The translations under genes were made by a program, and so were the position numbers. The notes under the pieces were generated by a model that was not told the DNA's origin, did no database searches, and worked only from the letters and a program-made list of their open reading frames with translations. A stretch of DNA of 64,000 nucleotides, from contig CAYVLZ010000005.1 in NCBI GenBank assembly GCA_964452525.1, forward strand, positions 6,979 through 70,978, given 5' to 3'. Source of the stretch: Candidatus Woesearchaeota archaeon (GTDB lineage Archaea; Nanobdellota; Nanobdellia; SCGC-AAA011-G17; CAYFGV01). Every line of letters starts with the position of its first letter. The first letter of the stretch is position 1. Shown here piece after piece: positions 15,639 through 54,729 of this stretch.

Positions 15639-15640
15639 TT

Positions 15641-16498: not shown

Positions 16499-16533
16499 AG
16501 CTCAGAGATAATTATATTGTTTTAAAAAGTTTT

Positions 16534-17904: not shown

Positions 17905-17939
17905 TAAACGGTAAGAGAATTAAAGGTTTAAATGTTTTT

Positions 17940-18419: not shown

Positions 18420-18453
18420 GTTAGAAATTTTTGTGTTAAGATGTTTATAAATG

Positions 18454-20274: not shown

Positions 20275-20313
20275 ATTTTGGGGAACAGAATTAAAGTTAT
20301 AAATGTTTTGAAA

Positions 20314-20421: not shown

Positions 20422-20507
20422 TTAATAAGGTTCTCTGTAGGTTTGTTAATAAAGTTTACGATTGGGGTAAAGAAAGGTTTAAATATTGTTTTAAGAAACA
20501 TAGTTTA

Positions 20508-30453: not shown

Positions 30454-31004
30454 TGCTCAATTCTGAGCAAGGAAAGGCACTTCTCCAGTTAGCGAGACAT
30501 TCTATAAGCTCTTATTTTTTAAAAGAAGAATTAAGTTTACCAGGTAAATTTAATATTAAGCAAGGGGTTTTTGTAACGCTTCATGATTCTACCGCTAGAT
30601 TAAGAGGTTGTATTGGATTTATAGATCCTATTTTTCCCTTAGAAGAAGCTGTTTTCAGAGCAGCCAGAGCTGCAGCATTTTCTGATCCACGGTTTAAACC
30701 GTTAGATAAGGAAGAATTACAAAATATAGTTATAGAAATATCTGTTTTAACAAAACCAGAGTCTTTACAGCTAGATCGTGGTGATTTTAAGAAGATCGTT
30801 ATTGGTGAGGATGGTTTGGTTGTGGAAAAGGGTAATTGTAAGGGCTTATTGTTGCCTGTTGTTGCTGTAGAACAGAACTGGGATCAAAGGAAGTTTATAG
30901 AGAATTGTTGTGTTAAGGCTGGTTTAGACAAAGATTCTTGGAGAGACCAAGAATGTAGAATTTATAGATTTCAAGCACAGGTTTTTTCTGAAAATGATGG
31001 ATGA
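30450..31004 (+). CDS. AMMECR1-domain protein
   Basis: GVFVTLHD...LRGCIGF..P signature of AMMECR1; ATGA overlap with rpoL. Confidence 0.8.
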   Translation: MMLNSEQGKALLQLARHSISSYFLKEELSLPGKFNIKQGVFVTLHDSTARLRGCIGFIDPIFPLEEAVFRAARAAAFSDPRFKPLDKEELQNIVIEISVLTKPESLQLDRGDFKKIVIGEDGLVVEKGNCKGLLLPVVAVEQNWDQRKFIENCCVKAGLDKDSWRDQECRIYRFQAQVFSENDG

Positions 31005-31641
31005 GAGATTAGATTATGAGGATCATGAAGAGAATAAAAGAAGTCCTATAATATATATTTTAACTACTTTTTTGTTTTTGTTGGTTGTTTTAATGGCCAT
31101 ACCTTATTATGGTATAAGATCTGATCCTAGTCCTACTTATATTCCTGAGTTGGAAGATGTCATGTCTGGTCTTGTTATTGATAATGCGACTAGGTTAAGT
31201 GACATTGAACAAATTAATTATGTTCAGGTAGATCCTTTTTTGAAAACAGTTTCTGCTAGAGTTGCTAGGTCTTGTGATACTAGCAGGAAGGTTTGTTACT
31301 CTAAAGCTTTTTTTATTTTTGTTAGAGATGAGATCAGTTATATTAGTGACCCTGATTTTGAGTACATAGAGAGTGCTGAGCTTGTTTTAAATAGTGGTTC
31401 TGCTGATTGTGATGGTAAAAGTATTTTGTTAGTTAGTTTTTTGAAAAGTGTGGGTGTTCCTAGTAGAATTGTAATTGGGAACAACCATGCTTTTGTTCAG
31501 GCTTATTTGCCGGATGCTCTAGAGTCTTACAAGACTGAGGGTGAATGGGTGAGTTTAGATCCTAGTTGTAGCAATTGTGAGTTTGGGGAAGTAAATCCTA
31601 GGTATCTGAATAATATTTATGATGTGGTTTATGTGAATTAA
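30994..31641 (+). CDS. Membrane-anchored transglutaminase-like (papain-fold) protein
   Basis: N-terminal TM IIYILTTFLFLLVVLMAI; core GSADCDGKSILLVSFLKSVGVPSRIVIGNNHAFVQ (Cys...His...Asp). Confidence 0.6.
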   Translation: MMDERLDYEDHEENKRSPIIYILTTFLFLLVVLMAIPYYGIRSDPSPTYIPELEDVMSGLVIDNATRLSDIEQINYVQVDPFLKTVSARVARSCDTSRKVCYSKAFFIFVRDEISYISDPDFEYIESAELVLNSGSADCDGKSILLVSFLKSVGVPSRIVIGNNHAFVQAYLPDALESYKTEGEWVSLDPSCSNCEFGEVNPRYLNNIYDVVYVN

Positions 31642-31682
31642 AATAGAAAGTTTTTTATGTATCCTGTTTAGTAAGTTAAAAA

Positions 31683-32273
31683 ATGGTTTCTTGGTCTAGG
31701 GTGTTGAGGAAGTTCTGGAATTTCATATGGCATGACAATAGTGTTTGGAGTTGGCTTGCTAATATAGCTTTAGCATTTGTTTTAGTTTACTTTATTGTAT
31801 ACCCTGGTTTGGGTTTATTTTTAAGCACTACTCATCCTGTTGTTGCTGTTGTTTCTGGAAGCATGGAGCATGGATCTGATTTTGATGAATGGTGGGATAG
31901 TAATAGGGGTGCTTGGTATGAGAAGAATGGCATAGATAAAGAAATGTTTAGTCAATATATTTTTAAGAATGGTTTTAATAAAGGAGATATCATGGTTTTG
32001 ACTGGAGCGGAGGCTCCAGAAATTGAAGTCGGGGACGTGATTGTTTTTAGGAGCAATGCTAATGATCCTATAATTCACAGGGTGGTGAATAAAACTTATG
32101 AGGATGGAGAATATGTTTTTCAGACTAAAGGAGACCATAATGCTGGAATTAGTAGTCCTTTGGGGGAGGACGATATAACGGAGAATGAGATTGTAGGTAA
32201 GGCAGTATTTAGAGTTCCTTGGTTGGGATGGTTTAAAATTATATTTGTAGATTTATTAAACTTTATAGGGTGA
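31683..32273 (+). CDS. Signal peptidase I (archaeal/ER Sec11 type)
   Basis: N-terminal TM, box B VVSGSMEHG (catalytic Ser), GDIMVL, and box D IIHRVV (catalytic His). Confidence 0.8.
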   Translation: MVSWSRVLRKFWNFIWHDNSVWSWLANIALAFVLVYFIVYPGLGLFLSTTHPVVAVVSGSMEHGSDFDEWWDSNRGAWYEKNGIDKEMFSQYIFKNGFNKGDIMVLTGAEAPEIEVGDVIVFRSNANDPIIHRVVNKTYEDGEYVFQTKGDHNAGISSPLGEDDITENEIVGKAVFRVPWLGWFKIIFVDLLNFIG

Positions 32274-34093: not shown

Positions 34094-34140
34094 GCTTTTG
34101 GAAGGGAAACCTTTATAAGTTTATTATCTTAAATAGTTGC

Positions 34141-34896
34141 ATGAGTAAAAGAGGTCAGGTTACTGCTTTTATATTAGTTGGTATTGTTGTTTTAGCTATA
34201 TTGGGTTTTGTTTTTTATGCTAGAGGTTATTTTTCTAGAATTTCTATTGGTGGAGAATCCGGACAGAGGTATGTTAATTCTCAGTTGGAATCTATTACTG
34301 AATATTTAGATGATTGCGTTAATGAGGTTGTAGAAGATGATTTAAAATTGTTAATAGATAATGCTGGTTTTTTTCAATTGACAAGCTATTATATTATTTA
34401 TGAAGGCGGAGAAGTTAATTATTTGATTTATGAAATAGATGGAGAAAAAGTTAATGGAATGAATTTAAAGAGTTATATTGAAGATCAGATTTCTGATCAT
34501 GTTAAGAATAAATTAGTTAATGAATGTACTTTGAAAGAATATGAAGATCAGTTTACCTTGAATAGAGGAAATATAAATGTAGATACCTTAATTGTTGATG
34601 AAAAGATATTGGTGGTACTAGATTATCCTGTTACAGTTGTCAGGGGAGATGTTAGAGGAGAGATAAGAGAGGTTGAAGTTGATATAGATACAGATTTTGG
34701 AAAGATTTATGATGCGGTTACTGATATTGTAAATGGTGAAATGGAGAATGGAGACTTTGATAAAAATAGTTACGAATTAAGTCATAGAGATATTGTTATA
34801 AGAAAAGATAACCTTTATTTATCTGATGCTGTTTATAGTATTACTACTACCGAAGATGGAGAAGATGAGTTTGTGATATTCGCGGTTAGAAGATGA
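34141..34896 (+). CDS. Class III signal peptide (prepilin-like) protein 1
   Basis: MSKRGQVTAFILVGIVVLAILGFVFYA: K-R-G|Q followed by a 20-residue hydrophobic helix. Confidence 0.55.
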   Translation: MSKRGQVTAFILVGIVVLAILGFVFYARGYFSRISIGGESGQRYVNSQLESITEYLDDCVNEVVEDDLKLLIDNAGFFQLTSYYIIYEGGEVNYLIYEIDGEKVNGMNLKSYIEDQISDHVKNKLVNECTLKEYEDQFTLNRGNINVDTLIVDEKILVVLDYPVTVVRGDVRGEIREVEVDIDTDFGKIYDAVTDIVNGEMENGDFDKNSYELSHRDIVIRKDNLYLSDAVYSITTTEDGEDEFVIFAVRR

Positions 34897-36605
34897 AAAA
34901 AAAGAGTTTGATATTAATTTTTGTGTTTTTTGTTAGTTTGTTAACTATTTCTGTTGATAAGGTAAATGCGGCTAGCGTTTGTTGTGAAAAAAGTAACGGA
35001 GATTACTGTGTATTTACTGATATTGGTGCATGTGATACTGCTTATAGTAGCAATCTTCAGAGAAATTATGGTTTTTCACAGTTTTCTTGCTCATCTGTTA
35101 ATTATTGCCAACAAGTTTGTTGTATAGATACTGGTGGAGTTTGTTCCGAGGGTATGACTGAAGTACAGTGTTTAGATCAGGGGGGAACTGTTAGAAGTGA
35201 AGGTTGTGACAATTATTTAGAATGTCAGGTTGGAAGTTGTGTTATTGGTGGGCAATGTAGCACCGGAGTAACGAATAGGGAATGTAGATTAAATGCTGAT
35301 AAATTTAATGTTACTTATATTTTTGATCCCAATATTAATGATTTGGATGAATGTAGGGATAAGTATTCTACAGAAGAGGGTTGCTGTATTACTGAAAACG
35401 GTTGTGTAAGAACAACTTCTGCCGTATGTGAAGGTGATTTTAAAGCTGGAAAATTGTGTAGTAATACGGATTTCGTTGGGTTATGTACTAATCAAAAAGA
35501 GTTCGAGAGAAGATGTGGACCTGATGGTGAAGATGTTTATTGGTACGATTCTGAAGGGCAGTTAGAGAATATTGTCGGCGTTCCTTATGATGGAAATATT
35601 AGGACGAAGCAACAGTCTATGGGGGTTGTTGGTGATTGTGATTATGTTGCTGGGAATACTTGTGGGATAAATGAAAGGGGTGATTATTCTTGTGTAACTA
35701 TAGATTGTGTATCGGGAAATAAATTTAGCATTCCAAGGCCAATTCCAAGTACTGGAGAGGTGTTGAATATAGAAGTTGATATAAGTAATGATCTTTTAGG
35801 TGGAAAAAATATTAGGAAAAATGGAGAAAGCTGGTGTTTTATGAGTAGTTATAATTGGGATCAAACAAGTATGGATAGAGGTTACTATCTTGGTGACCAG
35901 TCTTTGGATAGTACTGGATTGGTTCATCAAAAATATTCGGCTGGATCTAGGCATTATATTATGAGTTGTAATCTTGGAAGAGTTGAGCCGGAATTTTGTA
36001 GTGCTTTTAGAGAAACGGTTTGTAAAGAAAACACGGTTTCAGGACAAACTTCTGCCAAATGTGTTGAGAATGAGGCTGATAAATGTAGAAGTATAACAAG
36101 TGATAGTGTTTGTAAGAATGAAGATAATCGGGAGTTTTGTGTTTTGAATACGGGAGGTATTAATGAATGTTGGCCTAGACCAGAATATGCCCTTGGTTTT
36201 GAGTTTTGGTTAGATTCTAATGTTAATAGTCAAAATGAAAGACAATGTCAAAGTAAATGTGGCAAGGGCGTAGATGTTTGTGATGATGATGAGTGTTGGA
36301 GTTTGGGAGATTGTACTATTGAAGATAGGGGCATGTTTGGTGGAGGTGGAAGTGCTTTGGCTGGTTGTGCTGTTGGAGCTGGTATCGGAGGTTTTGGAGC
36401 CCATATTCCTGTGGTTGGCGGACAGTTTGAATCTGGATTATTGAGATTGAGAGAGATATTTGGGTTGGTTCCAGATTTGGTAGGCCCTCCAGCACCCTCT
36501 TCTCCTCTTAGAGAAGATGTAGAAATCACTTGTAATACTGATGATGATTGTAATGAAGGAGAGAAATGTTTGTATCAGTTTGGAGGATGTGTTAAAGTAA
36601 GTTAG
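34893..36605 (+). CDS. Large cysteine-rich secreted protein (about 60 Cys; Gly-rich hydrophobic segment near the C-terminus)
   Basis: Sec-type signal MKKKSLILIFVFFVSLLTISVDKVNA; CC/CxxC-dense throughout; GGGGSALAGCAVGAGIGGFGAHIPVVGG Gly-zipper-like segment. Confidence 0.55.
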   Translation: MKKKSLILIFVFFVSLLTISVDKVNAASVCCEKSNGDYCVFTDIGACDTAYSSNLQRNYGFSQFSCSSVNYCQQVCCIDTGGVCSEGMTEVQCLDQGGTVRSEGCDNYLECQVGSCVIGGQCSTGVTNRECRLNADKFNVTYIFDPNINDLDECRDKYSTEEGCCITENGCVRTTSAVCEGDFKAGKLCSNTDFVGLCTNQKEFERRCGPDGEDVYWYDSEGQLENIVGVPYDGNIRTKQQSMGVVGDCDYVAGNTCGINERGDYSCVTIDCVSGNKFSIPRPIPSTGEVLNIEVDISNDLLGGKNIRKNGESWCFMSSYNWDQTSMDRGYYLGDQSLDSTGLVHQKYSAGSRHYIMSCNLGRVEPEFCSAFRETVCKENTVSGQTSAKCVENEADKCRSITSDSVCKNEDNREFCVLNTGGINECWPRPEYALGFEFWLDSNVNSQNERQCQSKCGKGVDVCDDDECWSLGDCTIEDRGMFGGGGSALAGCAVGAGIGGFGAHIPVVGGQFESGLLRLREIFGLVPDLVGPPAPSSPLREDVEITCNTDDDCNEGEKCLYQFGGCVKVS

Positions 36606-36607
36606 AA

Positions 36608-38227
36608 ATGAATAAATCAAAGAAGACTTGGATGAAGCATGTTGTTGTTTTGGGAGTAGTTATGCTTTTGTTGATTCCTTCTGCTTTTGCTATCTGGAAT
36701 TATGTTATTGGATGTGGCGTTGGTGCTGTAGTTGGTCTTTTTGTCGGGGGCATTGGAGTAAATTGTTATGATTATCAATGGACTCCTGATATGGATAAGA
36801 GTAAAGATAATTATCAGTGTACTTTATGTAATAATTTTAATGAGTTTGGTTTAGATGAAGATTTGACTTCTTATTTTGAGCCTTGTACTGAGTATAGATG
36901 TAAGAGTATAGGTAAGTTATGTGAGTTTAAAGAGTTTGAAGAGGAGGAAGGAGCTGGTATCTGTGTAAGAAAAGATTGTAGTAAAGAATTTGATGCACCT
37001 AAAATTACCAATTGTGAGGTCAGGGATCCCGATACTACAAATAAATATAATGTAGCACAGACTGAAAATGGTTGTAAAATTCTAGATCCTATACCAGAGT
37101 TTGATGGTGCTGCTATTATGTTAAATATAAGCGAGGCTGGCCAGTGTAGGTTTAGTACTGTTCCTGATTTTACAGAAACTAATAGTGTTTGGTTTGGCAG
37201 TCCTAATTTTGATACAGCACATTTCTTTTTACTAAGTGTTTATGATGCCAATGAAACGGTTATTCAAGAATGTAATTCTGGAGATTGTAATTTATATGTT
37301 AAATGTGGTGATGTTTGTGATAATACAATGGGTAGTAGTTATGCTATTAGTTTCAATATAAAAGAAGGTCCTGATTTAGAATCTCCCAGGATTGTTGATA
37401 CTTTAGTTGAGAGTGGTGCTATGGTACCTGCTGGTATTGAAAATATAGAATTTAGTATGAGTGTTTTTGATCATAGCAATATTGAAAGTTGTAAATGGGC
37501 AACTGATGAATTTGAAGAATATGAAGATATTAAGAATACCTTTGATTGTAAGAATGATTTTGGCAATGTAGATGTTGTAGCTAATTTTCTTGAAGAAGGT
37601 ATATTTTGTGAAACTACTTTAACTGGATTAGAGGATGACGAAGATAATATATTTTACTTTAGTTGTAGAGACGATTCTGAACAGAAAAATACCTTAAAAC
37701 CTTATGTAGAGTTTATATTGAAAGGAACTACTCCCTTAAATATTACTAATTCTCATATGCCAGAAGGCACCCTTTATAGTTTGAATTATACCGTTACTGC
37801 TGTAACTAATAGGGATGCTAATTGTTATTATAAGATCAATAATAGAGACAGGGAAGAGTTTAATAATACTGGATTGACTTCACATAGCGCTGAGGTTAAA
37901 TTTGATCCAGGACAGGTTAATTTAGAAATTTTATGTCATGATATTGCTGGAAATGAAGATAGTGTTACAGGTACATTTAGAGCGGAAGAAGATACTAAAC
38001 CACCCACGTTGGTAAGGTTGTATTCTGATGCAAGTTATTTAACAGTTGTTTTAGATGAAGAAGCTAAATGTGAGTATTCTGATGAGCAATTTATATTTGA
38101 AGATGGTACGGTTATGGTTCCTGCAGATTATAGTAAAGAGCATAGAGCAGCAATAGGACAGGATGTTTATTACATCAAATGCAGGGATGTTTATGAGAAT
38201 GAGTTAAGCTTCACAGTTTATCCTTAA
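36608..38227 (+). CDS. Large cysteine-rich secreted/membrane-anchored protein with N-terminal glycine-zipper TM
   Basis: HVVVLGVVMLLLIPSAFAIWNYVIGCGVGAVVGLFVGGIGV N-terminus; about 35 Cys; acidic. Confidence 0.5.
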   Translation: MNKSKKTWMKHVVVLGVVMLLLIPSAFAIWNYVIGCGVGAVVGLFVGGIGVNCYDYQWTPDMDKSKDNYQCTLCNNFNEFGLDEDLTSYFEPCTEYRCKSIGKLCEFKEFEEEEGAGICVRKDCSKEFDAPKITNCEVRDPDTTNKYNVAQTENGCKILDPIPEFDGAAIMLNISEAGQCRFSTVPDFTETNSVWFGSPNFDTAHFFLLSVYDANETVIQECNSGDCNLYVKCGDVCDNTMGSSYAISFNIKEGPDLESPRIVDTLVESGAMVPAGIENIEFSMSVFDHSNIESCKWATDEFEEYEDIKNTFDCKNDFGNVDVVANFLEEGIFCETTLTGLEDDEDNIFYFSCRDDSEQKNTLKPYVEFILKGTTPLNITNSHMPEGTLYSLNYTVTAVTNRDANCYYKINNRDREEFNNTGLTSHSAEVKFDPGQVNLEILCHDIAGNEDSVTGTFRAEEDTKPPTLVRLYSDASYLTVVLDEEAKCEYSDEQFIFEDGTVMVPADYSKEHRAAIGQDVYYIKCRDVYENELSFTVYP

Positions 38228-38229
38228 AG

Positions 38230-38709
38230 ATGAAAAAAGCACAGATATTTTCAACGCCATTATTATATATTTTTATTTTAATCGTTATGGCTTTTGTTAT
38301 ATTTTTTGGAGCTAAAGCAATTAAGAACACTACTGAAATTAGTAAAACTGTAGATTATGAAACTTTTATCGACGATGTTCAGGAAAGATTTGATAGTGTT
38401 TCTATTTTGGATTATGGTAGTACAGTTTCTTTAAGAGAGGTATATGTTCCTACGGATGTGAAAGAGGTGTGTTTTGTAGATTCAGAAGAGAGGATTAATA
38501 TTGGTAATGTTAAGGATGAAAAATTGAAAAAAATTATTGATTCTGGTGTTGATGCAGACTTATTTTTTGTTAATGGAAGGGTAACCTATAATAATGTGGG
38601 TAGAGTTTTTGAACTAGAGGAAAATCCTTTATGCGATTCTACTTTTGATGATAGGTTGGATGTTAAGTTGATAAATCAAGGAAATGTTATAAGGGTAGAG
38701 AAAGCTTAA
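38230..38709 (+). CDS. Class III signal peptide (prepilin-like) protein 2
   Basis: MKKAQIFSTPLLYIFILIVMAFVIFFGAKA. Confidence 0.5.
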   Translation: MKKAQIFSTPLLYIFILIVMAFVIFFGAKAIKNTTEISKTVDYETFIDDVQERFDSVSILDYGSTVSLREVYVPTDVKEVCFVDSEERINIGNVKDEKLKKIIDSGVDADLFFVNGRVTYNNVGRVFELEENPLCDSTFDDRLDVKLINQGNVIRVEKA

Positions 38710-38734
38710 TATATCAATAAAAAGAAATATTCTT

Positions 38735-39610
38735 ATGAGAAAAGGGCAGGTGCAGTTTAATTGGATTTTTATTTTGGTTGCTGGAGCTATTCTTTTGGCT
38801 TTCTTTGCTGGTTTTATAGTTAAGTACACACAATTACAAGACGATAAGTTAAATGTTCAGGTTGGTATGGGCCTAGATGAGATAATAAGTAATTTAAGAG
38901 GAACTACCCTGTATAAGAATTTGAGTACAGAAGTTCCTTTTAATGTTAATTTTGGTTGTGATGGTTTTTCTATTGGTGAATATCAACAAGATATTGGAAC
39001 GAAAGTTGTTTTTGCTTCTAAGAATATTAGTAGTGATAATGTTTTTACTTGGACTAGAGAATGGAGAGGACCTTTTAGGATTGATAATATGATATATTTT
39101 GTGAATGGAGATTCTAAATATTATTTATCTAACGATCCTTTAAACTTATTACAGGATATGTCAGGACATATCAGAGAAAATTTCGTTGGAATGAATAATG
39201 CAGATATTTTTGTTGTTTTTTCTTTAACAGATTTTAATCATTTTAAACAGAGAGGTAATACTGTTTATATTGAGCCTAGGGAAATCGGAGAAGTTAGGTT
39301 TTATAGAGAAGGTAGAGAGGAAAGAAGTTATCATCTGGGAAAAGAATTTATTTATGGTGCTATTTTTTCAGCTAATTATGATAATTATTATTGTAATGTT
39401 CTAAAATTAGAGGAGAAATATGATAATTTAAGACAAATTTATGCTAAGAAGGCTATGTATTTGGACAGTATTTATCCTGAATGTGATTATAGTACTGTTG
39501 TTTCAGATCTTAATATTGTTTTTGATAGTAATAAATTTGATGTTGTCAGCAATAATTTAGCAAGTGCTAATAGCATTTTATGGGAAAAAGGTTGCGAGGT
39601 GGTATTTTGA
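38735..39610 (+). CDS. Class III signal peptide (prepilin-like) protein 3
   Basis: MRKGQVQFNWIFILVAGAILLAFFAGFIV. Confidence 0.55.
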   Translation: MRKGQVQFNWIFILVAGAILLAFFAGFIVKYTQLQDDKLNVQVGMGLDEIISNLRGTTLYKNLSTEVPFNVNFGCDGFSIGEYQQDIGTKVVFASKNISSDNVFTWTREWRGPFRIDNMIYFVNGDSKYYLSNDPLNLLQDMSGHIRENFVGMNNADIFVVFSLTDFNHFKQRGNTVYIEPREIGEVRFYREGREERSYHLGKEFIYGAIFSANYDNYYCNVLKLEEKYDNLRQIYAKKAMYLDSIYPECDYSTVVSDLNIVFDSNKFDVVSNNLASANSILWEKGCEVVF

Positions 39611-40056
39611 AGAAAGGGCAATTGCAGATACAGGAAACAATTATTGTTATTTTTGTGTTTACTGTTATATTTGTGATTGGTTTAATGTTTTTTTATAGAT
39701 ATACTGTAAATAGTATAGAGCAGGATATAGAGAGACATAAGGAGGCTAATTTTAGACAGTTAATTGGTTATATTCCCAGTATGCCTGAACTTAAATGTAG
39801 TAGATTTTATGTTGAAGAGGAATGTATTGATGTGGCTAAGATGAATGCTTTTAAGTTTATCTCTGGAGATTATGATTTCGGAGAGATAAAACTTAATGTA
39901 AAAGAAGTATATTTAACAGGTAACGAATGGCAGATTTATGACGGTTCTCCTATGGACTATGAAAATGTTTTAGTTATATCTAGTCCTATTAGTTTATATT
40001 ATCCTGATACAGGTAAATATGGTGTGGGGGTTTTAGAGATATCTAAATATGATTAA
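39607..40056 (+). CDS. Class III signal peptide (prepilin-like) protein 4 (probable TTG start overlapping the previous stop)
   Basis: The ORF track gives ATG at 39580 inside the upstream gene. The in-frame TTG at 39607 gives (M)KKGQLQIQETIIVIFVFTVIFVIGLMFFY, a canonical KG|Q prepilin N-terminus. Confidence 0.5.
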   Translation: MKKGQLQIQETIIVIFVFTVIFVIGLMFFYRYTVNSIEQDIERHKEANFRQLIGYIPSMPELKCSRFYVEEECIDVAKMNAFKFISGDYDFGEIKLNVKEVYLTGNEWQIYDGSPMDYENVLVISSPISLYYPDTGKYGVGVLEISKYD

Positions 40057-40060
40057 GATG

Positions 40061-40495
40061 AAAGGGCAAATAGAGACTATGGGTTTGTTAATCATTGTAA
40101 TTTTACTGATATTTATGGCTTTAATTGCTTTAGTTTTCACGAGTAAAACTGAGAGAAATATCGACGAGAGTTTTTATAGTGTAAAAGCGAATAATCTTTT
40201 AAATGCAATACAAAAAGTAAGTGTTTGTGAGGAAAATATTGAAGAAGGAATAGGTAGTTGTTTAGAGGGAAGGGATTTTTGTGGTTCTGATGATGTTTGT
40301 GGTTTGGTTGAGCAGGAAATTAACAAAATAATTGATGTTACTGTCCAAGAGCAGGTTAGGTTTAGCGTAAAAGGGCAATATGGGGCTCCTGTGATTGAGA
40401 TTGGTGATTGTGAAGAGGGGGTTAGTTCTGTTTCTAGTGTTCTGAGAACAGAAGTTGGAAGTTATAATCTTGGTTTGTTGGTTTGTGAAAAATGA
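40061..40495 (+). CDS. Class III signal peptide (prepilin-like) protein 5
   Basis: MKGQIETMGLLIIVILLIFMALIALVF (ORF-track start 40049 is MIKMKGQ...). Confidence 0.55.
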   Translation, partial: KGQIETMGLLIIVILLIFMALIALVFTSKTERNIDESFYSVKANNLLNAIQKVSVCEENIEEGIGSCLEGRDFCGSDDVCGLVEQEINKIIDVTVQEQVRFSVKGQYGAPVIEIGDCEEGVSSVSSVLRTEVGSYNLGLLVCEK

Positions 40496-40691: not shown

Positions 40692-42899
40692 ATGAAAAAG
40701 ATGATTAAAAGTATTGCGGCTCTGGGAGCTGGAGTTGCTATGCTTGGAGCAACATTAGGTGGAGCTTTAGCAGTGAATGATTTAGGAAATTTACCTTCTC
40801 CATTTGTACAAGATAGTGCATTGGTTGATACTGCTATAGTTCTAGGAGAAACAGGTAACGACGCAGCAGCAAGAGACGATATAAATAATTACCTTGGCGG
40901 TTTAGCAACTGCTGGAGGTGTGACTGTTACTGGTGGAGAGGATAAGGATATTCCTCTTAACAACCATTTAGCTAATCCTACATATGGTTGGACGAGTCCA
41001 GTACAGGATCAAGATGTAGATGCTCTACAAGATACAGTGATTGATGTAGATATAGGAGATGTTTCTAATACTTACGATGTACATGATCAGGTGTACTTTG
41101 GAACAGGTATTAGAGTTGAAACTGGTTTGACTATAGGTACTCCAGATGACGATTTTGGTAGTGAACCATTTTTAAAGGTAAACAAAGATTCTGTAAAGTA
41201 TTCTTATGTATTTGATGACTCCATAAAACAAGATAACTATTTTGCGAATACAAGTACAGACGATTCGATAATAATAAGTTTCTTGGGTAATGAACTGGAA
41301 ATTATCGGTTCTGATGCCGCTAATAAATTTACTGCACTGGTTGGTGAAAAAGTTACACTGCAAGTAGATGAAACTTATACGGATCCTGATACTGGTGCTG
41401 TAGTTACATTGGTTGATGTAGCCAGCGGAGGAGCTGTATTTGTAGATGTTGATGGAGAGACGGATACAATCTCAAGTGGACAGTCAAAGCAAATAGGCGG
41501 TACTAAGATTAAAAATCAGAACCAGTTCTATACTGCTGATAGAGAAGATAGAAGAGCAACCTTGGTTATTGGTTCTGATACAACTAAGACGTATACTAGT
41601 GGTGACTATTATATTGGGTCTTCATCAAGTCCTGTTTGTGATGAAACAGATACTAGTGACCCTGACTGTTGGAAATGGGAAATTTCTGGATTGAACACTG
41701 CAACACCTACAATAAACATAACATTTGCAACTACTTTGGATAGTTCGGATGAAGTTATAAGAAAAGGTGACGCATTGAGATTACCAGATGACTTCATTGT
41801 TGTATCTTTGACTGATTATGTTATAAATGATTGGTTAGAGTATGAGTTTGAAGAATGTACAGAGGAACTACACAATAGTACTGGTGGAACTGGTATTGTT
41901 GCTGGTGAAGGGCCTGCAGGAACAACAAGTGAAAAGGCATTGTGCGTTAAAGCACTTGGTGGTACGGATGATGGATTTAAAGTTGGAACAACAGAGACAG
42001 ACGATGTTTTAATATTTGCTAATAACACTTGGGAAGCTGGAACTGGTGATGCTAGAGGTCCTTGGGTATATTATAAGGATCCTAATGATGTTGGTTCTGG
42101 TTGGAAATACAGAGCAAATGATACAGTAGAGCTATTCAACCACAAAGCAGGTAGTGTACTGTACAACCATTCCTTGACGAAAGTTACCATGCAATTTGAT
42201 GACACTAAATTGACAGCTGTAGTGACTACTGATAATGTTACGGATGAAGCTGGTTCCATTGGAGTGGGTTTCCAAATAGATGGTACTGCTGCTAATGACA
42301 TTAACTTTACAGCGAATGTAACGGGTAATGGTATTGAATGGTTGGGTGCTGTTGATGGAGATGCTAAGTCTAAGGATCTTACAGCAAACAATACAGAGAT
42401 AGGTACTTGGGAAGATGATACCATGACATATGATGGTATAAAAATATTTAACCCAGACTCTTATGGAGACTCTGATAAATGGAGAGTAGCTATCCCTGGT
42501 GATGTTGGAACTGACTTTAGAATGACTGTAACTGTATCTGGCGAGTCTACAACAGGAACTACTTCAGCGGCTTTGATGACTGCAGATGATGTAAGTACAC
42601 CATCTGACTACAACTTAATCCTTGTAGGTGGACCATGTGTCAATAGCTTAACTGCTTCATTCTTAGGAGTAGCAGCTAACTCTTGTGGTGATTCCTCTGG
42701 ATTTAACCCAGGAGAAGGTTATGTTGAGCTTATGGACAATGGCAATAAAGTAGCGATGATTGTAGCAGGATGGGAAGTAGACGACACTAGAAGAGCTGCT
42801 AAGGTTGTAGCTAACCCAGGTAGTTTTGACTTGGCAGGCAAGTCTTCAGTAACTGTAACAGGAACATCAACAAGCTTGAACGACATAACAGTTGTTTAA
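40692..42899 (+). CDS. Candidate S-layer (major surface) glycoprotein
   Basis: Signal peptide MKKMIKSIAALGAGVAMLGATLGGALA; 735 aa, acidic, Thr/Gly/Asp/Val-rich with few Cys; multiple sequons (NTST, NHSL, NVTD, NFTA, NVTG, NTEI); long 5' leader and T-rich terminator. Confidence 0.55.
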   Translation: MKKMIKSIAALGAGVAMLGATLGGALAVNDLGNLPSPFVQDSALVDTAIVLGETGNDAAARDDINNYLGGLATAGGVTVTGGEDKDIPLNNHLANPTYGWTSPVQDQDVDALQDTVIDVDIGDVSNTYDVHDQVYFGTGIRVETGLTIGTPDDDFGSEPFLKVNKDSVKYSYVFDDSIKQDNYFANTSTDDSIIISFLGNELEIIGSDAANKFTALVGEKVTLQVDETYTDPDTGAVVTLVDVASGGAVFVDVDGETDTISSGQSKQIGGTKIKNQNQFYTADREDRRATLVIGSDTTKTYTSGDYYIGSSSSPVCDETDTSDPDCWKWEISGLNTATPTINITFATTLDSSDEVIRKGDALRLPDDFIVVSLTDYVINDWLEYEFEECTEELHNSTGGTGIVAGEGPAGTTSEKALCVKALGGTDDGFKVGTTETDDVLIFANNTWEAGTGDARGPWVYYKDPNDVGSGWKYRANDTVELFNHKAGSVLYNHSLTKVTMQFDDTKLTAVVTTDNVTDEAGSIGVGFQIDGTAANDINFTANVTGNGIEWLGAVDGDAKSKDLTANNTEIGTWEDDTMTYDGIKIFNPDSYGDSDKWRVAIPGDVGTDFRMTVTVSGESTTGTTSAALMTADDVSTPSDYNLILVGGPCVNSLTASFLGVAANSCGDSSGFNPGEGYVELMDNGNKVAMIVAGWEVDDTRRAAKVVANPGSFDLAGKSSVTVTGTSTSLNDITVV

Positions 42900-42979: not shown

Positions 42980-43528
42980 ATGAAAGAGACATCTAGTAAA
43001 AAAAATATGTTCTTTGTTCTATTTATAGCACTAATAATGATAACTAGCGTTCTTGGATTTGTGATGAGGGGCGATTCTTCTAATAGTAGTTATGAGTATA
43101 ATGGCTATGATTTCATTAAGGTGGAGGGCAAGTGGGTAATTTATATAGATGATAAGTACTTTTCTTTTGATTATCTTCCCTCTGAAGTAAGTGATGTTGA
43201 TGTAGGTAATTTTGAGTTGGGTTCTGGAAAAATTTATATTGCTTATCTTCCTGCTGAAAAAGATTCCGTTATAGAATATAATATGTTAAGACTGTACGAT
43301 ATTATTCAGTACAGGGGGGTTTTGCCTGTATTTGCTTGTACTGGAGAAGATGGATGTCCTGATATTCCTGTCGTTACTTGTGATAATGAGAATAAAGTTA
43401 TTCGGTTTAAGAAGTTAGATGATTATGGGGTTGCTATTGAAGATAATTGTGTTATTCTTCGGGGTGAGGGAACTGATTTGACTAAAGTAACAGATAGGTT
43501 TATATATCATTTGTTGGGTGTTATGTAA
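42980..43528 (+). CDS. Membrane-anchored protein, paralog 1 of a two-gene pair downstream of the S-layer gene
   Basis: N-terminal TM MFFVLFIALIMITSVLGFV; C-terminal ...GVAIEDNCVILRGEGTDLTKVTDRFIYHLLGVM. Confidence 0.4.
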   Translation: MKETSSKKNMFFVLFIALIMITSVLGFVMRGDSSNSSYEYNGYDFIKVEGKWVIYIDDKYFSFDYLPSEVSDVDVGNFELGSGKIYIAYLPAEKDSVIEYNMLRLYDIIQYRGVLPVFACTGEDGCPDIPVVTCDNENKVIRFKKLDDYGVAIEDNCVILRGEGTDLTKVTDRFIYHLLGVM

Positions 43529-43530
43529 AA

Positions 43531-44190
43531 ATGGATAGTAAAGATAGATTCGTTACGGGATTGATATTGTTCTTTGTATTTGTTTTAGCTTTTGTTCTGA
43601 CTTTTGCTTTTTATAGTAGATCAAAAGGTCCTGAAACTTATACTTATTCAGGAAAGGATGGTAAGGAGTATAAGTTTACTATTGATGAAAAGAATGATGT
43701 GACTTTTCATGTATTAAGTATGAGAAGGAATTATGTTGATTATAATATTCCCTTTGAGTTTGGTCCCGCTGAGCTTTCTCATGTATATTTAGAGGAAGAT
43801 ATAGATGATAAGATCTTATATAATGATAATGGAAATAAAAAGAGGGCGATATTTGTCACACAGGATCCTGATCTAGTATCACAGACTAGACAAAGATCTG
43901 TGATTGCTCTGTTGACTATTAGTAGAATTACTGGCCTGGATAACCCCGGGTTTTTTAAAATACCTTCTTACCAAGCTTTTACTGAAACTACGGATGTAAT
44001 AAATGAGAGAGACCATTTTATTAGAACTTGTGAGGATGCATCTTCTTTGAGGGGGGTTGTTCTTTTACGTATAGGTGATGAAAATAGAATATATTCTGAT
44101 GGTTATTGCGTGATTGTTGAAGGTGTGGATGGTGATGGATTAGTTGAGGGAGCTACTAAGTTAGTTTATAATTTGTTAGGAATAGTATAA
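43531..44190 (+). CDS. Membrane-anchored protein, paralog 2
   Basis: N-terminal TM LILFFVFVLAFVLTFAFY; C-terminal ...DGYCVIVEGVDGDGLVEGATKLVYNLLGIV, same ending pattern as the upstream paralog. Confidence 0.4.
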   Translation: MDSKDRFVTGLILFFVFVLAFVLTFAFYSRSKGPETYTYSGKDGKEYKFTIDEKNDVTFHVLSMRRNYVDYNIPFEFGPAELSHVYLEEDIDDKILYNDNGNKKRAIFVTQDPDLVSQTRQRSVIALLTISRITGLDNPGFFKIPSYQAFTETTDVINERDHFIRTCEDASSLRGVVLLRIGDENRIYSDGYCVIVEGVDGDGLVEGATKLVYNLLGIV

Positions 44191-49448: not shown

Positions 49449-50942
49449 TCACTTTATTTTTATTGTTTCTTTAACAAAACTTTTTGCATAATTTAAGTTG
49501 GTTTTGTTGTCAGAATATATCGTAAATAGTTTGTGCCCTTTATTTACCTTATCTTTTGTTTTTACGTATAGATATATTCCGGCTTCTTTGTCCTGAGGAG
49601 ATCCGGCAATTCTTGCAATCTTATTTATTTTTTTTATATCTATTGAACTAATGATTCCGGTTTTGCTCGCTTTGACTGTATGGGAAAATTTTCCTATTCT
49701 TAATTGTGAGGGTAGGATGTTGGGGTTTCCTTCTTGTGCTTTAATTATTTCCTTCATCCTTTTGTAGGCAAGACCTGAATCTAAAATACTTTTAACAAGA
49801 GTTTCTGATTTTTTTATCCCAACCATTTTTAAGATTATGCTAGCCATCTTGATGGATTTTCTTTCTAAGTCTTTTGGCGCTTTTTCATCTCTTTTTAATA
49901 TGTAAAGTACGTCTCTGGCTTCTAGGTTCGGACCTATTCCGTTTCCTATTGGTTGTGAACCATCTGTTAGTATTACTTTTATCTTTATACCTAATCTTCT
50001 CCCTATTCTTTTGAATTTTAATTTTAGTCTCTTGCCTTCTCTTATTGATTTTATTTTAGAATCTTTTCCGATTGGTAAATCTATTAGTACATGGGTTGCA
50101 TTAACTGCAGCTTTTTTTGCAAGTATACTGCTAATTAACATTGCTTCTGGGTCTAAGCTTAGAGAATGTCTTACTTTTATGAGTTTGTCATCTGCGCTTG
50201 CTAATTCTATTGCACCTCCCCATGCTATAAAGGCGTTTGTTTTTTTGATTATTTTTTTTAATTTTTTAATCGGCAAGTTTACTTTTGCTAAACTTTCCAT
50301 GGTGTCTGCGGTCCCGCTCGCAGAAGTTATGCTTCTTGAACTTGTTTTGGGAATGGTTAGATTGGCTGCAGCTAGAATTGGTACTACTATCATAGTTGTT
50401 CTATTTCCTGGAATTCCTCCAGAACAATGTTTGTCTACTATTATCTTTCTATTAATCTTTATTTGAGAGCCATTTTTAACTATGGCTTTTGTTAGGTAGG
50501 TAATTTCTCTTTCATCTAGCCCATGATTATAACAAGCAGAAACAAAATATGCTAGTTCTATTTCTGTTAGTTCGTTTGCTACTAGATCTTTCACTATAAT
50601 ATTGATCTCTTTTTCATTTAATTTTTTACCTTCAAGTTTTTTCTTTATCAATTCTATAGATTCTGGTATTGTTACTGGGAAGATTTTTACTTTTTGTTTA
50701 TCTTTAACTTTTAAAATATCTAGAACTTCTTCAAACAATCCTATTTTTCCTTTTTTAATGCCCTTGTCACTCTCTGATATATCTACTGCTGCTATTATTT
50801 GTTTTTTTCCTTTTTTTATCTTTATTCTATCCAATGCTTGGAGATCTAGTTTTTCTGCATCTTTATAGTTGAGTATTACTATTAACGGACCTCCAGAAGA
50901 GATATCTACGTCTTTAACTTTTAATAACATTTTTTTCCTCAT
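49449..50942 (-). CDS. deoA: AMP phosphorylase (thymidine-phosphorylase family, archaeal DeoA type)
   Basis: N-terminal extension characteristic of AMPpase, then the nucleoside-phosphorylase-II core HCSGGIPGNRTTMIVVPILAAANLTIPKTSSRSITSASGTADTMESLA; 497 aa. Confidence 0.8.
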   Translation of the reverse strand: MRKKMLLKVKDVDISSGGPLIVILNYKDAEKLDLQALDRIKIKKGKKQIIAAVDISESDKGIKKGKIGLFEEVLDILKVKDKQKVKIFPVTIPESIELIKKKLEGKKLNEKEINIIVKDLVANELTEIELAYFVSACYNHGLDEREITYLTKAIVKNGSQIKINRKIIVDKHCSGGIPGNRTTMIVVPILAAANLTIPKTSSRSITSASGTADTMESLAKVNLPIKKLKKIIKKTNAFIAWGGAIELASADDKLIKVRHSLSLDPEAMLISSILAKKAAVNATHVLIDLPIGKDSKIKSIREGKRLKLKFKRIGRRLGIKIKVILTDGSQPIGNGIGPNLEARDVLYILKRDEKAPKDLERKSIKMASIILKMVGIKKSETLVKSILDSGLAYKRMKEIIKAQEGNPNILPSQLRIGKFSHTVKASKTGIISSIDIKKINKIARIAGSPQDKEAGIYLYVKTKDKVNKGHKLFTIYSDNKTNLNYAKSFVKETIKIK

Positions 50943-51921
50943 AGAATTTGAAGAAAGTGATAGTCAATGCTAATATTAAAGGACCGATTATAACACCCAC
51001 TAAGCCGAACATTTTTATCCCTCCTACTAATCCTAGTAAGACAATTATTGGATGTATCTTGATCTTTGAGCTTATTAATCGAGGTTTTATTACATTATCC
51101 ACAGAGCTGATTATTATTGTACCATAGATTAGGAGCAGGATACCATTTATTACGTTTCCAGTGAATAATAAATATATTCCTGCTGGAACCCAGATCAAAA
51201 ATGGACCCACGATGGGAAGTATGGACATTGTGGCCATTACCACACCCCAGAACAAAGCGTTTGAAATACCAAATATTTTGAAACCTATTGCTCCCGCTAT
51301 TCCCTGTGCTATTCCAGCTACGATTAGACCAAATATAACAGACTTTGTAACTACGGCAAATTCTTTTATGACCTCTTCTTTATGTTTATTGTCTACAGGT
51401 AAAACTCTCTTTAATGTTTCTAGTAGATTTTCTTTGTCCTTAAGAACGTAGAAGAATGTAAACAGTATTACGAAGAGGGAGAATAACTTTCTTGGTATTG
51501 ATAATAAGAATTCTGGTATGGTTCCTGTTATTATATTAGTGATCTCTGATCTTGCTTCAGAAATATAGGTGCTGACGTCTATCCTGCTTCCTATTACCGA
51601 ACTTATTGCGTTAGATATCTCAGCTTCATCAATAGATCTTATTGAAGAATAAATGTTGAAGACCTCTTTTAATAATATGTTTGCTGCGAATATTGCTGGA
51701 ATTAATATTAAGATTATTAGAATAATTAACATTACGTAAGATGTTATTTTTTTATTTTTTATTTTTTTGTTCAGTTTTTTGAATAGTGGATAGAAGACGA
51801 AAGCTAATACTATTGCGGTTAGTACTGCATTTATGAAAGGGAGAATTATTTTAAATGATAAAATTATGAGTAATACTAACAATGCTAGAAAGAAATATTT
51901 TCTATGATTTCTGTTTTTCAT
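50914..51921 (-). CDS. AI-2E (PerM/UPF0118) family transporter
   Basis: 8 TM helices; C-terminal conserved pattern ...GPFLIWVPAGIYLLFTGNVINGILLLIYGTIIISSVDNVIKPRLIS typical of the family. Confidence 0.55.
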   Translation of the reverse strand: MKNRNHRKYFFLALLVLLIILSFKIILPFINAVLTAIVLAFVFYPLFKKLNKKIKNKKITSYVMLIILIILILIPAIFAANILLKEVFNIYSSIRSIDEAEISNAISSVIGSRIDVSTYISEARSEITNIITGTIPEFLLSIPRKLFSLFVILFTFFYVLKDKENLLETLKRVLPVDNKHKEEVIKEFAVVTKSVIFGLIVAGIAQGIAGAIGFKIFGISNALFWGVVMATMSILPIVGPFLIWVPAGIYLLFTGNVINGILLLIYGTIIISSVDNVIKPRLISSKIKIHPIIVLLGLVGGIKMFGLVGVIIGPLILALTITFFKFYEEKNVIKS

Positions 51922-51997
51922 ACTACCTTTTTGGATTATGGTTATAAAAGCTTTTTGTTTACGCTGGTGTAGAAATGTTTATAAAAAACTTTGACTT

Positions 51998-52342
51998 GTG
52001 TTTACTATGGTTCCTACTATAGTTGGTTTTGTCGAGAAAGTTAGAATAGCAGATAAGCAAATAATGGCTAGAGTAGATACTGGAGCTACAATTAGTTCGA
52101 TAAACAAGACTTTGGTGGATAGCCTTGGTCTAGGGCCTGTTGTTAGAACTACTAAGGTTGCTAGTGCTCAAGGAAAGCAGGTTAGGCCGATTGTCATAGT
52201 TGATTTAGAAATTGCAGGGAAGAATCTTAAAGCAGAGTTTAGTGTAGCTAATAGGGACCACATGGAATATCAGATATTGATAGGAAGGAACATCCTGAAG
52301 CATGGTTTTTTGATTGATCCTAGGAAGGAATTTAAAAAATGA
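51998..52342 (+). CDS. Retropepsin-like aspartic protease (RimK-associated type)
   Basis: ARVDTGATISSIN contains the D-T/S-G-A catalytic motif; 114 aa; ATGA overlap with the downstream ATP-grasp gene. Confidence 0.65.
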   Translation: MFTMVPTIVGFVEKVRIADKQIMARVDTGATISSINKTLVDSLGLGPVVRTTKVASAQGKQVRPIVIVDLEIAGKNLKAEFSVANRDHMEYQILIGRNILKHGFLIDPRKEFKK

Positions 52343-53412
52343 AAGTGGCGCTGATTGGTTTGGGAGGAGATACTACTAAGTCAATAATCAGAGAATGTAT
52401 CGGATACTTCAAGAAGGCAGATTTTTTAGATATAAGGAAATTAAAGTTACATATAAGTTCTGATAGCGTTGAGGTATTTTATGATGATAATAATCTTGAG
52501 GATTATGATTGCGTTTATTGTAGAGGAAGTCATAAATATGCCTTGTTGTTGACGGGGATTACGGAGGCTTTAAATAGCAAATGTTATATGCCTGTCTCTA
52601 GTAACGCTTTTTTAGCTTGCCATAATAAATTTTTAACTTCTATGGAACTTCAAAAGGCCAATATTCTTATGCCTAGGACTTTCTTGGCATCTAATAGTAA
52701 TGCTGCTAAGAAGATTTTAGAAGAGATCCACTACCCTGTTATTATTAAAATACCTAGTGGAACTCATGGAAAAGGTGTAATGTTTGCTGATAGTAGGAGT
52801 AGTGCTAAGAGCGTCATAGACACCTTAGAAGTTTTTAATCAATCCTATATCATACAGGAATATGTTGAAACTGATGCTACAGATATAAGGGCGGTAGTTC
52901 TTGGAGATAGGGTTATTTCTGCTATGAAAAGAAAAGCTGCTAAAGATGAATTAAGAGCTAATCTCCACATGGGAGGAATGGGAATTGCTACCAATGTTAG
53001 TGAGGAAGTAGAGAGATTGGCTGTAAGGTCTGCAAAGGCCTTAGGTCTTGATATTTGCGCTGTTGATCTACTAGAGGGAGCTAAAACAAGCGTTTTAGAA
53101 GTTAATGTTAGTCCAGGTCTTAGGGGGATAAGTGAAGTTACTAAAAGAAATATAGCTAGAGATGTTGCTAAATTTTTATATGATAAAACTTGTAATTTTA
53201 AAAACATTAAAAAGAAAGAAGGATATGATGACATAATTAATGGTTTAGATAAGAAGATTAACAATCAGTTTCTGTCTAACCTAGATATAAAATTAGGTAG
53301 GATAAGATTGCCGGGAGCAGCCACTAAGTTAAGTGGTTTAACTGAGCATGACGAAGTTATGATTAAGGCTGATAGAGGAAAGATAATTATAACTAAGTCA
53401 GATGTTAAATGA
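52339..53412 (+). CDS. RimK-family ATP-grasp ligase (alpha-L-glutamate ligase-like) with about 90-aa C-terminal extension
   Basis: ATP-grasp core YPVIIKIPSGTHGKGVMFA...IIQEYVE...DIRAVVLGDRVISAMKRKA...LHMGG...AVDLLEG...VLEVNVSPGL. Confidence 0.7.
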   Translation: MKVALIGLGGDTTKSIIRECIGYFKKADFLDIRKLKLHISSDSVEVFYDDNNLEDYDCVYCRGSHKYALLLTGITEALNSKCYMPVSSNAFLACHNKFLTSMELQKANILMPRTFLASNSNAAKKILEEIHYPVIIKIPSGTHGKGVMFADSRSSAKSVIDTLEVFNQSYIIQEYVETDATDIRAVVLGDRVISAMKRKAAKDELRANLHMGGMGIATNVSEEVERLAVRSAKALGLDICAVDLLEGAKTSVLEVNVSPGLRGISEVTKRNIARDVAKFLYDKTCNFKNIKKKEGYDDIINGLDKKINNQFLSNLDIKLGRIRLPGAATKLSGLTEHDEVMIKADRGKIIITKSDVK

Positions 53413-53448
53413 AAAGATTTTTAAATCATTAACTTTCTGCTCTTTAAG

Positions 53449-54685: not shown

Positions 54686-54729
54686 CTGCTTTGGTATCTT
54701 TTCAAACTATATAAATATTAAGAAAATTT

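Follow-up and report, generated by a model that had tools for sequence, protein, structure and literature searches.

Minor pilins and pseudopilins that form priming complexes with a tip adhesin are known from bacteria, that is, GspH-I-J-K of the type II secretion system (T2SS) and FimU-PilV-W-X-E with PilY1 of type IVa pili (T4aP) (in part, PMC3875500). In archaea, the Epd or System 1 (clade 1) loci for type IV filaments (TFF), found in Methanococcales, Methanobacteriales, and Thermococcales (PMC4858521; PMC3875500), encode two large adhesin-like proteins along with five or more minor pilins (PMC4858521); in Methanococcus maripaludis, the pilins processed by EppA have leaders of 5–13 amino acids (aa) that end in Gly and are followed by Gln at position +1 and Glu at position +5 (PMC3875500), and System 1 has been reported in DPANN archaea (Sivabalasarma & Albers 2026 preprint). 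Here we describe a seven-gene operon (P1–P7) in a 64,000-nucleotide (nt) stretch of DNA, the window, from a Candidatus Woesearchaeota archaeon (assembly GCA_964452525.1, contig CAYVLZ010000005.1, positions 6,979 to 70,978 of the forward strand; positions below are those of the window unless another contig or locus is named). The operon encodes five small pilin-like proteins (P1 and P4–P7) and the two halves (P2 and P3) of a giant Cys-rich surface protein; we think it moderately probable that these form a minor-pilin-like core (P4–P7) and an adhesin module (P1 with P2/P3) of a type-IV-filament-like structure whose prepilin peptidase, ATPase, and platform protein are encoded elsewhere. Among the DPANN archaea of groundwater, lakes, and sediments, Woesearchaeota and Pacearchaeota rank with the most abundant and diverse, and we know of no cultivated member of either group; for an apparatus at their cell surface or for contact with hosts, the gene cluster is at present the best candidate, and a function would be given to seven families that are now ‘hypothetical’.

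An earlier reading of this DNA from its sequence alone (the sequence-only reading) had listed seven co-directional open reading frames (ORFs); all of their coordinates, overlaps, and spacers hold on the + strand, and the N-termini and Gly-zipper segments quoted from them are present in the sequence (Table 1). The genes are tightly packed: P1 and P2 share an ATGA overlap, P2/P3 and P3/P4 are each separated by 2 nt and P4/P5 by 25 nt, P5 and P6 share a TTGA overlap, and P6 and P7 either overlap by 8 nt or are separated by 1 nt, the probable start of P7 being the ATG at 40058. The TTG start of P6 has GAGGTGG 5 nt upstream, and the TATA-box-like element ahead of P1 is likely the promoter of a leaderless or short-leader operon transcript. 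The gene encoding PCNA lies upstream of the operon and the gene encoding an S-layer protein lies downstream; the latter had been named as a candidate S-layer gene, and its S_layer_C match exceeds the Pfam cutoff. Its ORF has a mechanical start at GTG 40650 and a likely start at ATG 40692 behind GGAGGTG, 196 nt past P7. This gap (~196 nt) contains an AT-rich, TATA-like region in addition to the GGAGGTG Shine-Dalgarno sequence, and the S-layer gene is probably transcribed as a unit of its own, from a promoter region that it does not share with the operon. The homologous S-layer protein at a related locus (L001) belongs to the same S_layer_C family. The two genes that follow, D1 and D2, encode paralogs (hhalign probability 98.4%, E 4e-15).

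Table 1. Window positions of the operon, its promoter-like element, the genes that follow it, and a candidate pilin gene (a slash marks the putative cleavage site).
Feature	Position	Strand	Size	Description
TATA-box-like element	34113-34119	+		TTTATAA, 22-28 nt upstream of the P1 ATG; read from sequence
P1	34141-34896	+	251 aa	Pilin-like; canonical class III signal, MSKRG/QVTAF...
P2	34893-36605	+	570 aa	46 Cys; N-terminal half of split giant surface protein
P3	36608-38227	+	539 aa	24 Cys; C-terminal half of split giant surface protein
P4	38230-38709	+	159 aa	Pilin-like; MKKA/QIFSTPLLYIF...; first gene of the P4-P7 quartet
P5	38735-39610	+	291 aa	Largest of the pilin-like set; MRKG/QVQFNWIFILVAG...
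P6	39607-40056	+	149 aa	Pilin-like; TTG start, (M)KKG/QLQIQETIIV...
P7	40049/40058-40495	+	145-148 aa	Pilin-like; MKG/QIETMGLLIIV...
S-layer gene	40692-42899	+		Pfam S_layer_C, 30.3 bits (cutoff 23.9), residues 649-721
D1	42980-43528	+	182 aa	N-terminally anchored membrane protein without class-III-like motif
D2	43531-44190	+	219 aa	N-terminally anchored; paralog of D1
Candidate conventional pilin	17940-18419	-	159 aa	MKKKEG/AIELSMTTIIVIVIG...; Ig-like C-terminus; 16 kb from the operon

Our scan for relatives used one genome per GTDB species and P3 as the query; at least 525 stretches with a P3 relative were found, almost all of them labeled Woesearchaeota, Pacearchaeota, or Nanoarchaeia; by the source names of its homologs, the window comes from a DPANN archaeon of this group, as the sequence-only reading had supposed. 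The counts of synteny, motifs, and neighbors given below rest on 81 related loci that were fetched (1.19 Mb in total); their ORFs are mechanical longest-ORF calls that were assigned by iterated hidden Markov models (HMMs), so the local E-values relate to small databases. We found no earlier description of these families as a set: a literature search found no account of the cluster in Woesearchaeota or Pacearchaeota, and the gene set is without description in two archaeal TFF censuses (PMC4858521; Sivabalasarma & Albers 2026 preprint). The sequence-only reading had not recognized the gene set as a described system, and this stands for the set itself but not for its architecture, which resembles the Epd/System 1 loci of Methanococcales and Thermococcales. 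These are the closest known architecture, a resemblance that does not by itself establish membership. As in Epd/System 1, at least five minor-pilin-like proteins and large adhesin-like secreted proteins are encoded in one operon; the leaders mostly end in Gly that is followed, in most of the families, by Gln at +1, and an acidic residue is located near the mature N-terminus in some of them; and the likeness extends to small major pilins encoded elsewhere and to S-layer-like genes that are often associated. Unlike Epd/System 1, no ATPase, TadC pair, or EppA is encoded in the window (the 81 loci were motif-scanned for the ATPase and the A24 peptidase only); the large protein has no DUF2341 or PilY-like domain (32 sequences scanned), carrying instead Cys-knot and Ig-like domains and a hydrophobic middle; the acidic residue is at +3 (P7), with Glu or Gln at +6 (P6), in contrast to Glu at +5; and no significant match to a Pfam archaeal pilin family is found, the globular domains of the five small proteins being, by sequence comparison, five new families. 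By sequence and fold, the operon encodes new families in a new clade-wide arrangement that, in its working, would be like a minor-pilin/adhesin set.

The operon is also like the bacterial priming complexes: GspH-I-J-K and FimU-PilV-W-X-E consist of unrelated small pilin-like proteins, as do the four of the quartet, with one clearly larger member (here P5), a very large non-pilin surface protein is co-encoded, and the genes are often unlinked to motor genes. Unlike the bacterial proteins, those of the operon lack a G/F(M)TLxE motif with Glu5 and have archaeal-type leaders, and no sequence or fold similarity is detectable; unlike proteins of the PilY1 type, the large protein has no β-propeller but Ig domains and a hydrophobic region of its own. 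This comparison raises the possibility that the quartet is a secretion pseudopilus, that is, a T2SS-like piston that exports or inserts P2/P3 and perhaps the S-layer protein. Such a piston would be in keeping with four or five distinct pilin-like proteins that are encoded in a fixed order without an obvious major pilin, which recalls the T2SS pseudopilin sets, and with the tight linkage of the operon to genes for very large secreted proteins. We consider it improbable: P2, P3, and the S-layer protein carry Sec-type signal peptides or anchors of the ordinary kind, an outer membrane that would have to be crossed is lacking in archaea, neither an ATPase gene (window and 81 loci) nor a platform gene (window) is linked, and no sequence or fold similarity to the Gsp pseudopilins was found. 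A third point of comparison is provided by ArlF and ArlG (FlaF and FlaG), which, like proteins of the operon, are small, have an N-terminal hydrophobic helix and a β-rich ectodomain, and are linked to the S-layer; in contrast to the situation with ArlF and ArlG, no archaellum genes are nearby, there are five families instead of two, the cleavage-type motif is conserved, and no sequence similarity is detected with Pfam or NCBIfam.

The operon is strongly conserved, the outcome of the comparison of synteny across related DPANN genomes that had been proposed with the sequence-only reading. The first P3 homolog, only 27% identical and from a Nanoarchaeota metagenome-assembled genome, is located in a locus with the identical order of all ten genes, and the consensus order in the 81 loci is PCNA – [P1 – P2/P3] – P4 – P5 – P6 – P7 – S-layer – D1 – D2. 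The order P4-P5-P6-P7 is found in 47 of 47 loci. Where enough downstream sequence is available, the next gene after P7 is the S-layer gene in 26 of 30 loci, and D1 or D2 comes after it in 22 of 26; PCNA is located within 600 nt upstream in 16 of 32 loci and somewhere in the locus in 31. The P5 family is large, with 2254 representative clusters (50% identity) at E≤1e-3 among 1.84 billion representatives, and the named homologs are all annotated ‘hypothetical’.

Several individual loci deviate from the consensus or carry unexpected labels. The complete Woesearchaeota chromosome CP066683.1 (positions 7949-17883) has a rearranged cluster in the order P1 – fused P2/3 – P4 – P5 – second large P3-type gene – P6 – P7 – S-layer, with an additional P1 copy upstream of PCNA. 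The cluster is also present in CAZADO010000237.1, labeled ‘uncultured Alphaproteobacteria bacterium’ and probably a mis-binned contig, and in DYHK01000047.1, labeled ‘Candidatus Aenigmarchaeum sp.’. A small gene of the HVO_A0114 family (PF25212) recurs on the opposite strand just past P7 in several loci (e.g., L001, 8108-8461 (-), between P7 and the S-layer gene; L083 and L084, 22784-23143 (-)); this gene, which the window lacks, could be a local regulator.

The constant position beside the S-layer gene allows a different function for the same genes. In a static envelope complex, five type II membrane proteins (cleaved or uncleaved) and the giant protein would form a fixed scaffold across the pseudo-periplasm, without ATPase-driven assembly, that anchors or organizes the S-layer or builds a contact site. 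We regard this, the main alternative, as possible, if rather doubtful. A C-terminal hydrophobic anchor is present in 0 of the 32 S-layer proteins of the family; because all 32 are anchorless, a separate anchor is needed. In most loci with sufficient sequence, P7 is followed by the S-layer gene, and the S-layer gene by D1 or D2 (D1 and D2 are themselves possible S-layer anchors). The cluster is near-universal in the clade and is located among housekeeping genes (PCNA, TFS, and signal peptidase), no TFF core gene is nearby (motif scans for the ATPase and A24 peptidase; Pfam for the window), and the giant protein has its own hydrophobic membrane region. There is also a precedent: the pilin-like ArlF and ArlG proteins of the archaellum bind the S-layer and are not filament subunits of the archaellum proper. 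The S-layer gene, however, has an apparent promoter of its own as well as a long leader, which makes co-transcription with the operon improbable; two further observations that do not fit a static scaffold are provided by the N-termini of the small proteins and by a divergent locus (vide infra).

The N-termini of P1 and P4–P7 are the first evidence for a relationship to pilins. Using a loose class-III-like motif ([KR][GA][QFYEML] just ahead of the first hydrophobic helix), we find the motif in 63–91% of the members across the five pilin-like families; among the controls, it is found in 3–9% of D1/D2, P2, and P3 (D1, 3%) and in 4% of 164 other ORFs with an N-terminal transmembrane (TM) segment from the same loci. 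The alignments from which we calculated column percentages were built without reference to any motif. In these alignments, position -1 is Gly, Ala, or Ser in 99% of P1, 92% of P5, 99% of P6, and 96% of P7 sequences, with Lys or Arg at -2, and position +1 is Gln in 100% of P1, 94% of P6, and 98% of P7 sequences. The consensus sequences (numbers are percentages) are K85-[R/K]-G92/A6-Q100-x-T92-x-F97 for P1; K-[R/K]-[G/A]-[Q/E] followed by a hydrophobic helix for P4, with Ala at -1 in the P4 of the window; K-[K/R]-G80/A12 with a variable +1 (mostly Phe) for P5; K-[K/R]-G64/A24/S11-Q94 with E52/Q47 at +6 for P6; and K-[K/R]-G58/A35-Q98-x-E98-x-x-G100 for P7, in which +3 is Glu in 98% and +6 is Gly in 100%. 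In D1 and D2, a basic stretch and a membrane helix are present, but the conserved motif columns are not. The combination of Gly or Ala at -1 with, in most families, Gln at +1 appears to resemble the EppA-type class III signals of Methanococcus.

The sequence-only reading had proposed five prepilin-type signals. The conserved class-III-like N-terminus, which the control membrane proteins lack, agrees with that proposal, but only P1 satisfies a strict FlaFind-type pattern ([KRDE][GA][ALIFQMVED][ILMVTAS]x3): 84% of 80 P1 members match, in contrast to 11% for P4, 5% for P5, 0% for P6, and 0% for P7. The low rate for P4–P7 is explained by positions +2 to +4, which are often polar. We also considered whether the five pilin-like proteins are paralogs and rejected this: the globular parts of P1 and P4–P7 are mutually unrelated (hhalign probability <4%), and iterated HMMs joined the families solely via the N-terminal helix and via fused proteins. 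If the helices were plain membrane anchors, as in the static scaffold, four or five unrelated families would have no reason to conserve Gln at +1 and a small residue at -1, and D1 and D2 are anchored proteins without the motif.

Class-III-like signals are also found on archaeal sugar-binding proteins, and they are the only feature of the operon that would suit a bindosome-type uptake system, that is, solute-binding proteins feeding a transporter. No substrate-binding family in Pfam or NCBIfam is matched by the seven proteins or by the scanned family members (such matches had been named beforehand among the findings that would refute a filament); no ABC transporter or other P-loop protein is encoded in the window; the proteins are small (145–290 aa); and the model of P5 does not have the fold of a solute-binding protein. 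With no substrate-binding family, no ABC transporter, and the wrong fold for P5, we reject the bindosome as highly improbable.

A direct association of the quartet with conventional pilins is observed in L082, the locus of the most divergent P5 homolog with a long contig (JGI metagenome 3300064746, Ga0606640_0000373, positions 9465-21128, GC 44%). With HMMs of the globular domains only, this operon has homologs of P4, P5, P6, and P7 with E-values of 9e-12, 5e-32, 2e-11, and 5e-9, respectively, and their order is kept. P1, P2/P3, PCNA, and the S-layer gene are absent from the locus. Downstream of the quartet are at least nine further genes with class-III-like N-termini, including three canonical pilins of ~90 aa (KKG/VEISMNVLIV..., KRG/AEIALNVVIF..., and KRG/MEMTISMVIM...) and two proteins with long C-terminal Gly-zipper regions. 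The static scaffold does not predict a quartet that is located with canonical pilins but with no S-layer gene nearby, and we regard L082 as the strongest evidence that P4–P7 may work with ordinary pilins. Metagenome scans aimed at extending the L082 contig found nothing.

At 18358-21128, L082 also encodes a 1098-aa protein (MNKKG/MEFFIWLVVF...) with Glucosaminidase and Peptidase_M23 domains, for which the metagenome scan found no relatives. To judge from its domains, it looks like a ‘modular pilin’ bearing peptidoglycan hydrolases; the fusion of a prepilin-like leader with hydrolases suggests that related machines may attack bacterial cell walls.

A candidate for a filament subunit is also encoded in the window, at 17940-18419 (Table 1). 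This is the only other small ORF in the window with a FlaFind-like N-terminus, which resembles those of the three ~90-aa pilins of L082, and its match to the Ig-like Pfam family FixG_C (24.8 bits) is just under the cutoff (25.6); a tie to the operon is unproven. The ORF adjoins a gene for a 629-aa fn3/Y_Y_Y lipoprotein-like protein (18457-20343). At 20314-20421 (-), Rfam identifies a 108-nt tRNA (51.7 bits) that was missed by ARAGORN and is probably an intron-containing archaeal tRNA; because it overlaps the annotated start of ORF 18457-20343, this ORF probably starts further downstream.

P2 and P3 had been read as two large Cys-rich secreted proteins; they are indeed large and Cys-rich, but in many relatives they are the halves of a single protein. 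The gene adjoining P4 is a single ORF of 950–1550 aa in 28 of 62 loci, and in the fused homolog of locus L003 (1187 aa), the P2 of the window aligns with residues 12-370 and P3 with residues 717-1187. P2 and P3 map to the two ends of the ORF that is fused in relatives; what is a single protein of ~1200 aa there has been split by gene fission in the window. Along the fused protein, a signal peptide is followed by a Cys-rich ectodomain of ~600 aa, a hydrophobic middle rich in Gly, and a Cys-rich module that precedes the Ig-like domains. Two hydrophobic segments make up the middle of the L003 protein, and 0–5 were counted across the fused proteins, a number that does not settle the topology. P2 accordingly has a Sec-type signal peptide and a C-terminal Gly-zipper (about residues 486-513) with a tail, and P3 has an N-terminal hydrophobic region with a Gly-zipper (residues 6-54), the Cys-rich module, and the Ig-like domains. 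In a Pfam scan of 32 sequences of the family (the P2 of the window and 31 fused homologs), the Ig-like matches are to Big_13 (24 of 32), DUF4625 (14 of 32), and Y_Y_Y (7 of 32). The family alignment has 71 invariant columns, 24 of which are Cys; the number of Cys residues is even in all seven products of the operon, as expected for extracellular, disulfide-bonded proteins.

The large Cys-rich protein has P1 as its cognate partner: a gene of the P2/P3 family is located within 150 nt after 62 of 83 P1 genes, and the P1-P2/3 pair is tandemly duplicated in 21 of 79 loci. In the AlphaFold2 (AF2) model of P2, residues 28-440 are confidently predicted as small disulfide-rich β modules, and the Gly-zipper tail is disordered; no solved structure matches the model. 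As applied to P2, the fold check that had been proposed for the Cys-rich proteins did not identify a solved pilin or adhesin, and a sequence-profile search of the PDB with P3 found no significant relative.

In the second model, that of P5 (pLDDT 94.7), residues 8-53 form a 46-residue N-terminal helix, after which come a β region and a helical head. In sequence-profile searches of the PDB, the best match of the P4 family is to the α1 helix of the type IV pilin PilE1 (8pfb_G), with a marginal E-value of 0.007; the top match of P7 is to the same PilE1 chain, with an E-value (0.59) that is not significant; and the searches with P1, P5, and P6 found nothing. The PilE1 matches of P4 and P7 may be taken as hints, not proof, of a pilin-like helix. 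When P1–P7 were compared with Pfam and NCBIfam, no family was matched, and S_layer_C is the only match among all ten proteins; Pilin_N is matched by three of 49 P7 members, all below the threshold, and by no P1 members. For P5 and P2, the families therefore have confident models with no solved counterpart.

The sequence-only reading had reported that no assembly ATPase, platform protein, or prepilin peptidase is encoded in the window, and motif and Pfam scans bear this out: the window contains no P-loop protein of at least 150 aa, no multi-TM protein with an A24-type GxGDxK motif, and no Pfam match to T2SSE, T2SSF, or Peptidase_A24, the upstream half being judged from the best 25 of 44 families. 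Archaeal pilin sets are often located apart from their ATPase and TadC genes (PMC4858521). For DPANN archaea, FlaIJK has been found in a member of the Nanoarchaeia and type IV pili in several other lineages (PMC8561730), and a recent census places System 1, Aap-like, and 4A systems in some DPANN (Sivabalasarma & Albers 2026 preprint).

We favor the minor-pilin-like core with its adhesin module because the motif is conserved in five families, the N-terminal helix is pilin-like, the operon is fixed, the quartet of L082 is located with pilins, the large protein is adhesin-like, and the Epd loci are a precedent. Several observations weigh against it. P4–P7 carry three to six polar or mixed residues past the putative cleavage site; no significant match to the Pfam archaeal pilin families was found (none at E≤1 for the proteins of the window); and neither the head of P5 nor P2 finds a match among solved structures, pilins and adhesins included. 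The machinery genes are absent from the 64-kb window, scans of the 81 loci (±10 kb) for the Walker A motif of secretion ATPases and for the A24-type motif, which did not include platform proteins, are empty, and, in conflict with the reports of FlaIJK and type IV pili given above, a preprint states that DPANN genomes lack components of the type IV pilus (10.1101/2020.05.14.094862). The location of the Cys-rich protein at a filament tip is unproven and is complicated by its own hydrophobic membrane region, which is unusual for a subunit that leaves the membrane. Finally, the constant site beside the gene for an anchorless S-layer protein and among housekeeping genes would be no less expected for a constitutive envelope component than for an adhesion pilus.

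The favored minor-pilin/adhesin structure would have two modules. By analogy with GspH-I-J-K, FimU-PilV-W-X, and the Epd minor pilins, P4-P5-P6-P7 (module A) would assemble as a short pseudopilus or as a heteromeric complex for priming or at the tip; P1 and the giant P2/P3 protein, held by its Gly-rich hydrophobic middle, would form module B, in which the giant protein may be the adhesin or receptor-binding part and P1 its adaptor. The pilin-like proteins are made with a short basic leader, ending in Gly or Ala, as their sequences show. An A24 prepilin peptidase would then cut off the leader ahead of the conserved Gln; the N-terminal helices would bundle, and an ATPase/platform pair encoded elsewhere would push the structure out of the membrane; and the assembled structure would display the adhesin through or at the S-layer for contact with cells or a host. 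If the pilin assignment is true, the diversity of archaeal type IV filaments reaches into a major uncultivated clade, the predicted parts being a priming core of four proteins and an adhesin with a pilin-like adaptor of its own. The static scaffold, if true, would explain the tethering of an S-layer without an anchor in these cells.

A further structure can also be imagined, although we think it unlikely: the cluster could encode a core, motor-independent envelope organelle of Woesearchaeota and Pacearchaeota in which the five prepilin-like proteins and the hairpin-anchored giant protein self-assemble into a short pilus-like stalk across the pseudo-periplasm that anchors the S-layer and forms a host-contact site. 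Such an organelle would be derived from pilins and have lost the need for a dedicated ATPase, and the Gly-rich P2/P3 hairpin would replace pilin helices in its core.

Other parts of the window may also encode surface proteins. Two runs of secreted or N-terminally anchored proteins with weak Ig-like/CARDB matches, at 2515-5984 (+; 233, 373, 137, and 392 aa) and 6997-9917 (+; 570 and 402 aa), are possible further clusters of genes for surface proteins. The region at 30994-32270 (+), a short distance upstream of the PCNA-operon region, encodes a membrane-anchored transglutaminase-like protein (PF01841, E 9e-12) and, by sequence reading and with no Pfam match, a signal-peptidase-like protein. An STT3/AglB oligosaccharyltransferase is encoded in the downstream part of the window; our guess for its ORF is that of 874 aa at 58356-60977. 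At 49452-57431 (-), genes for an AMP phosphorylase-like protein, a RuBisCO large chain, and a protein of the IF-2B family (ribose-1,5-bisphosphate isomerase-like) occur together; this set is the archaeal nucleotide-salvage pathway that is common in DPANN, and by this context the RuBisCO is probably form III.

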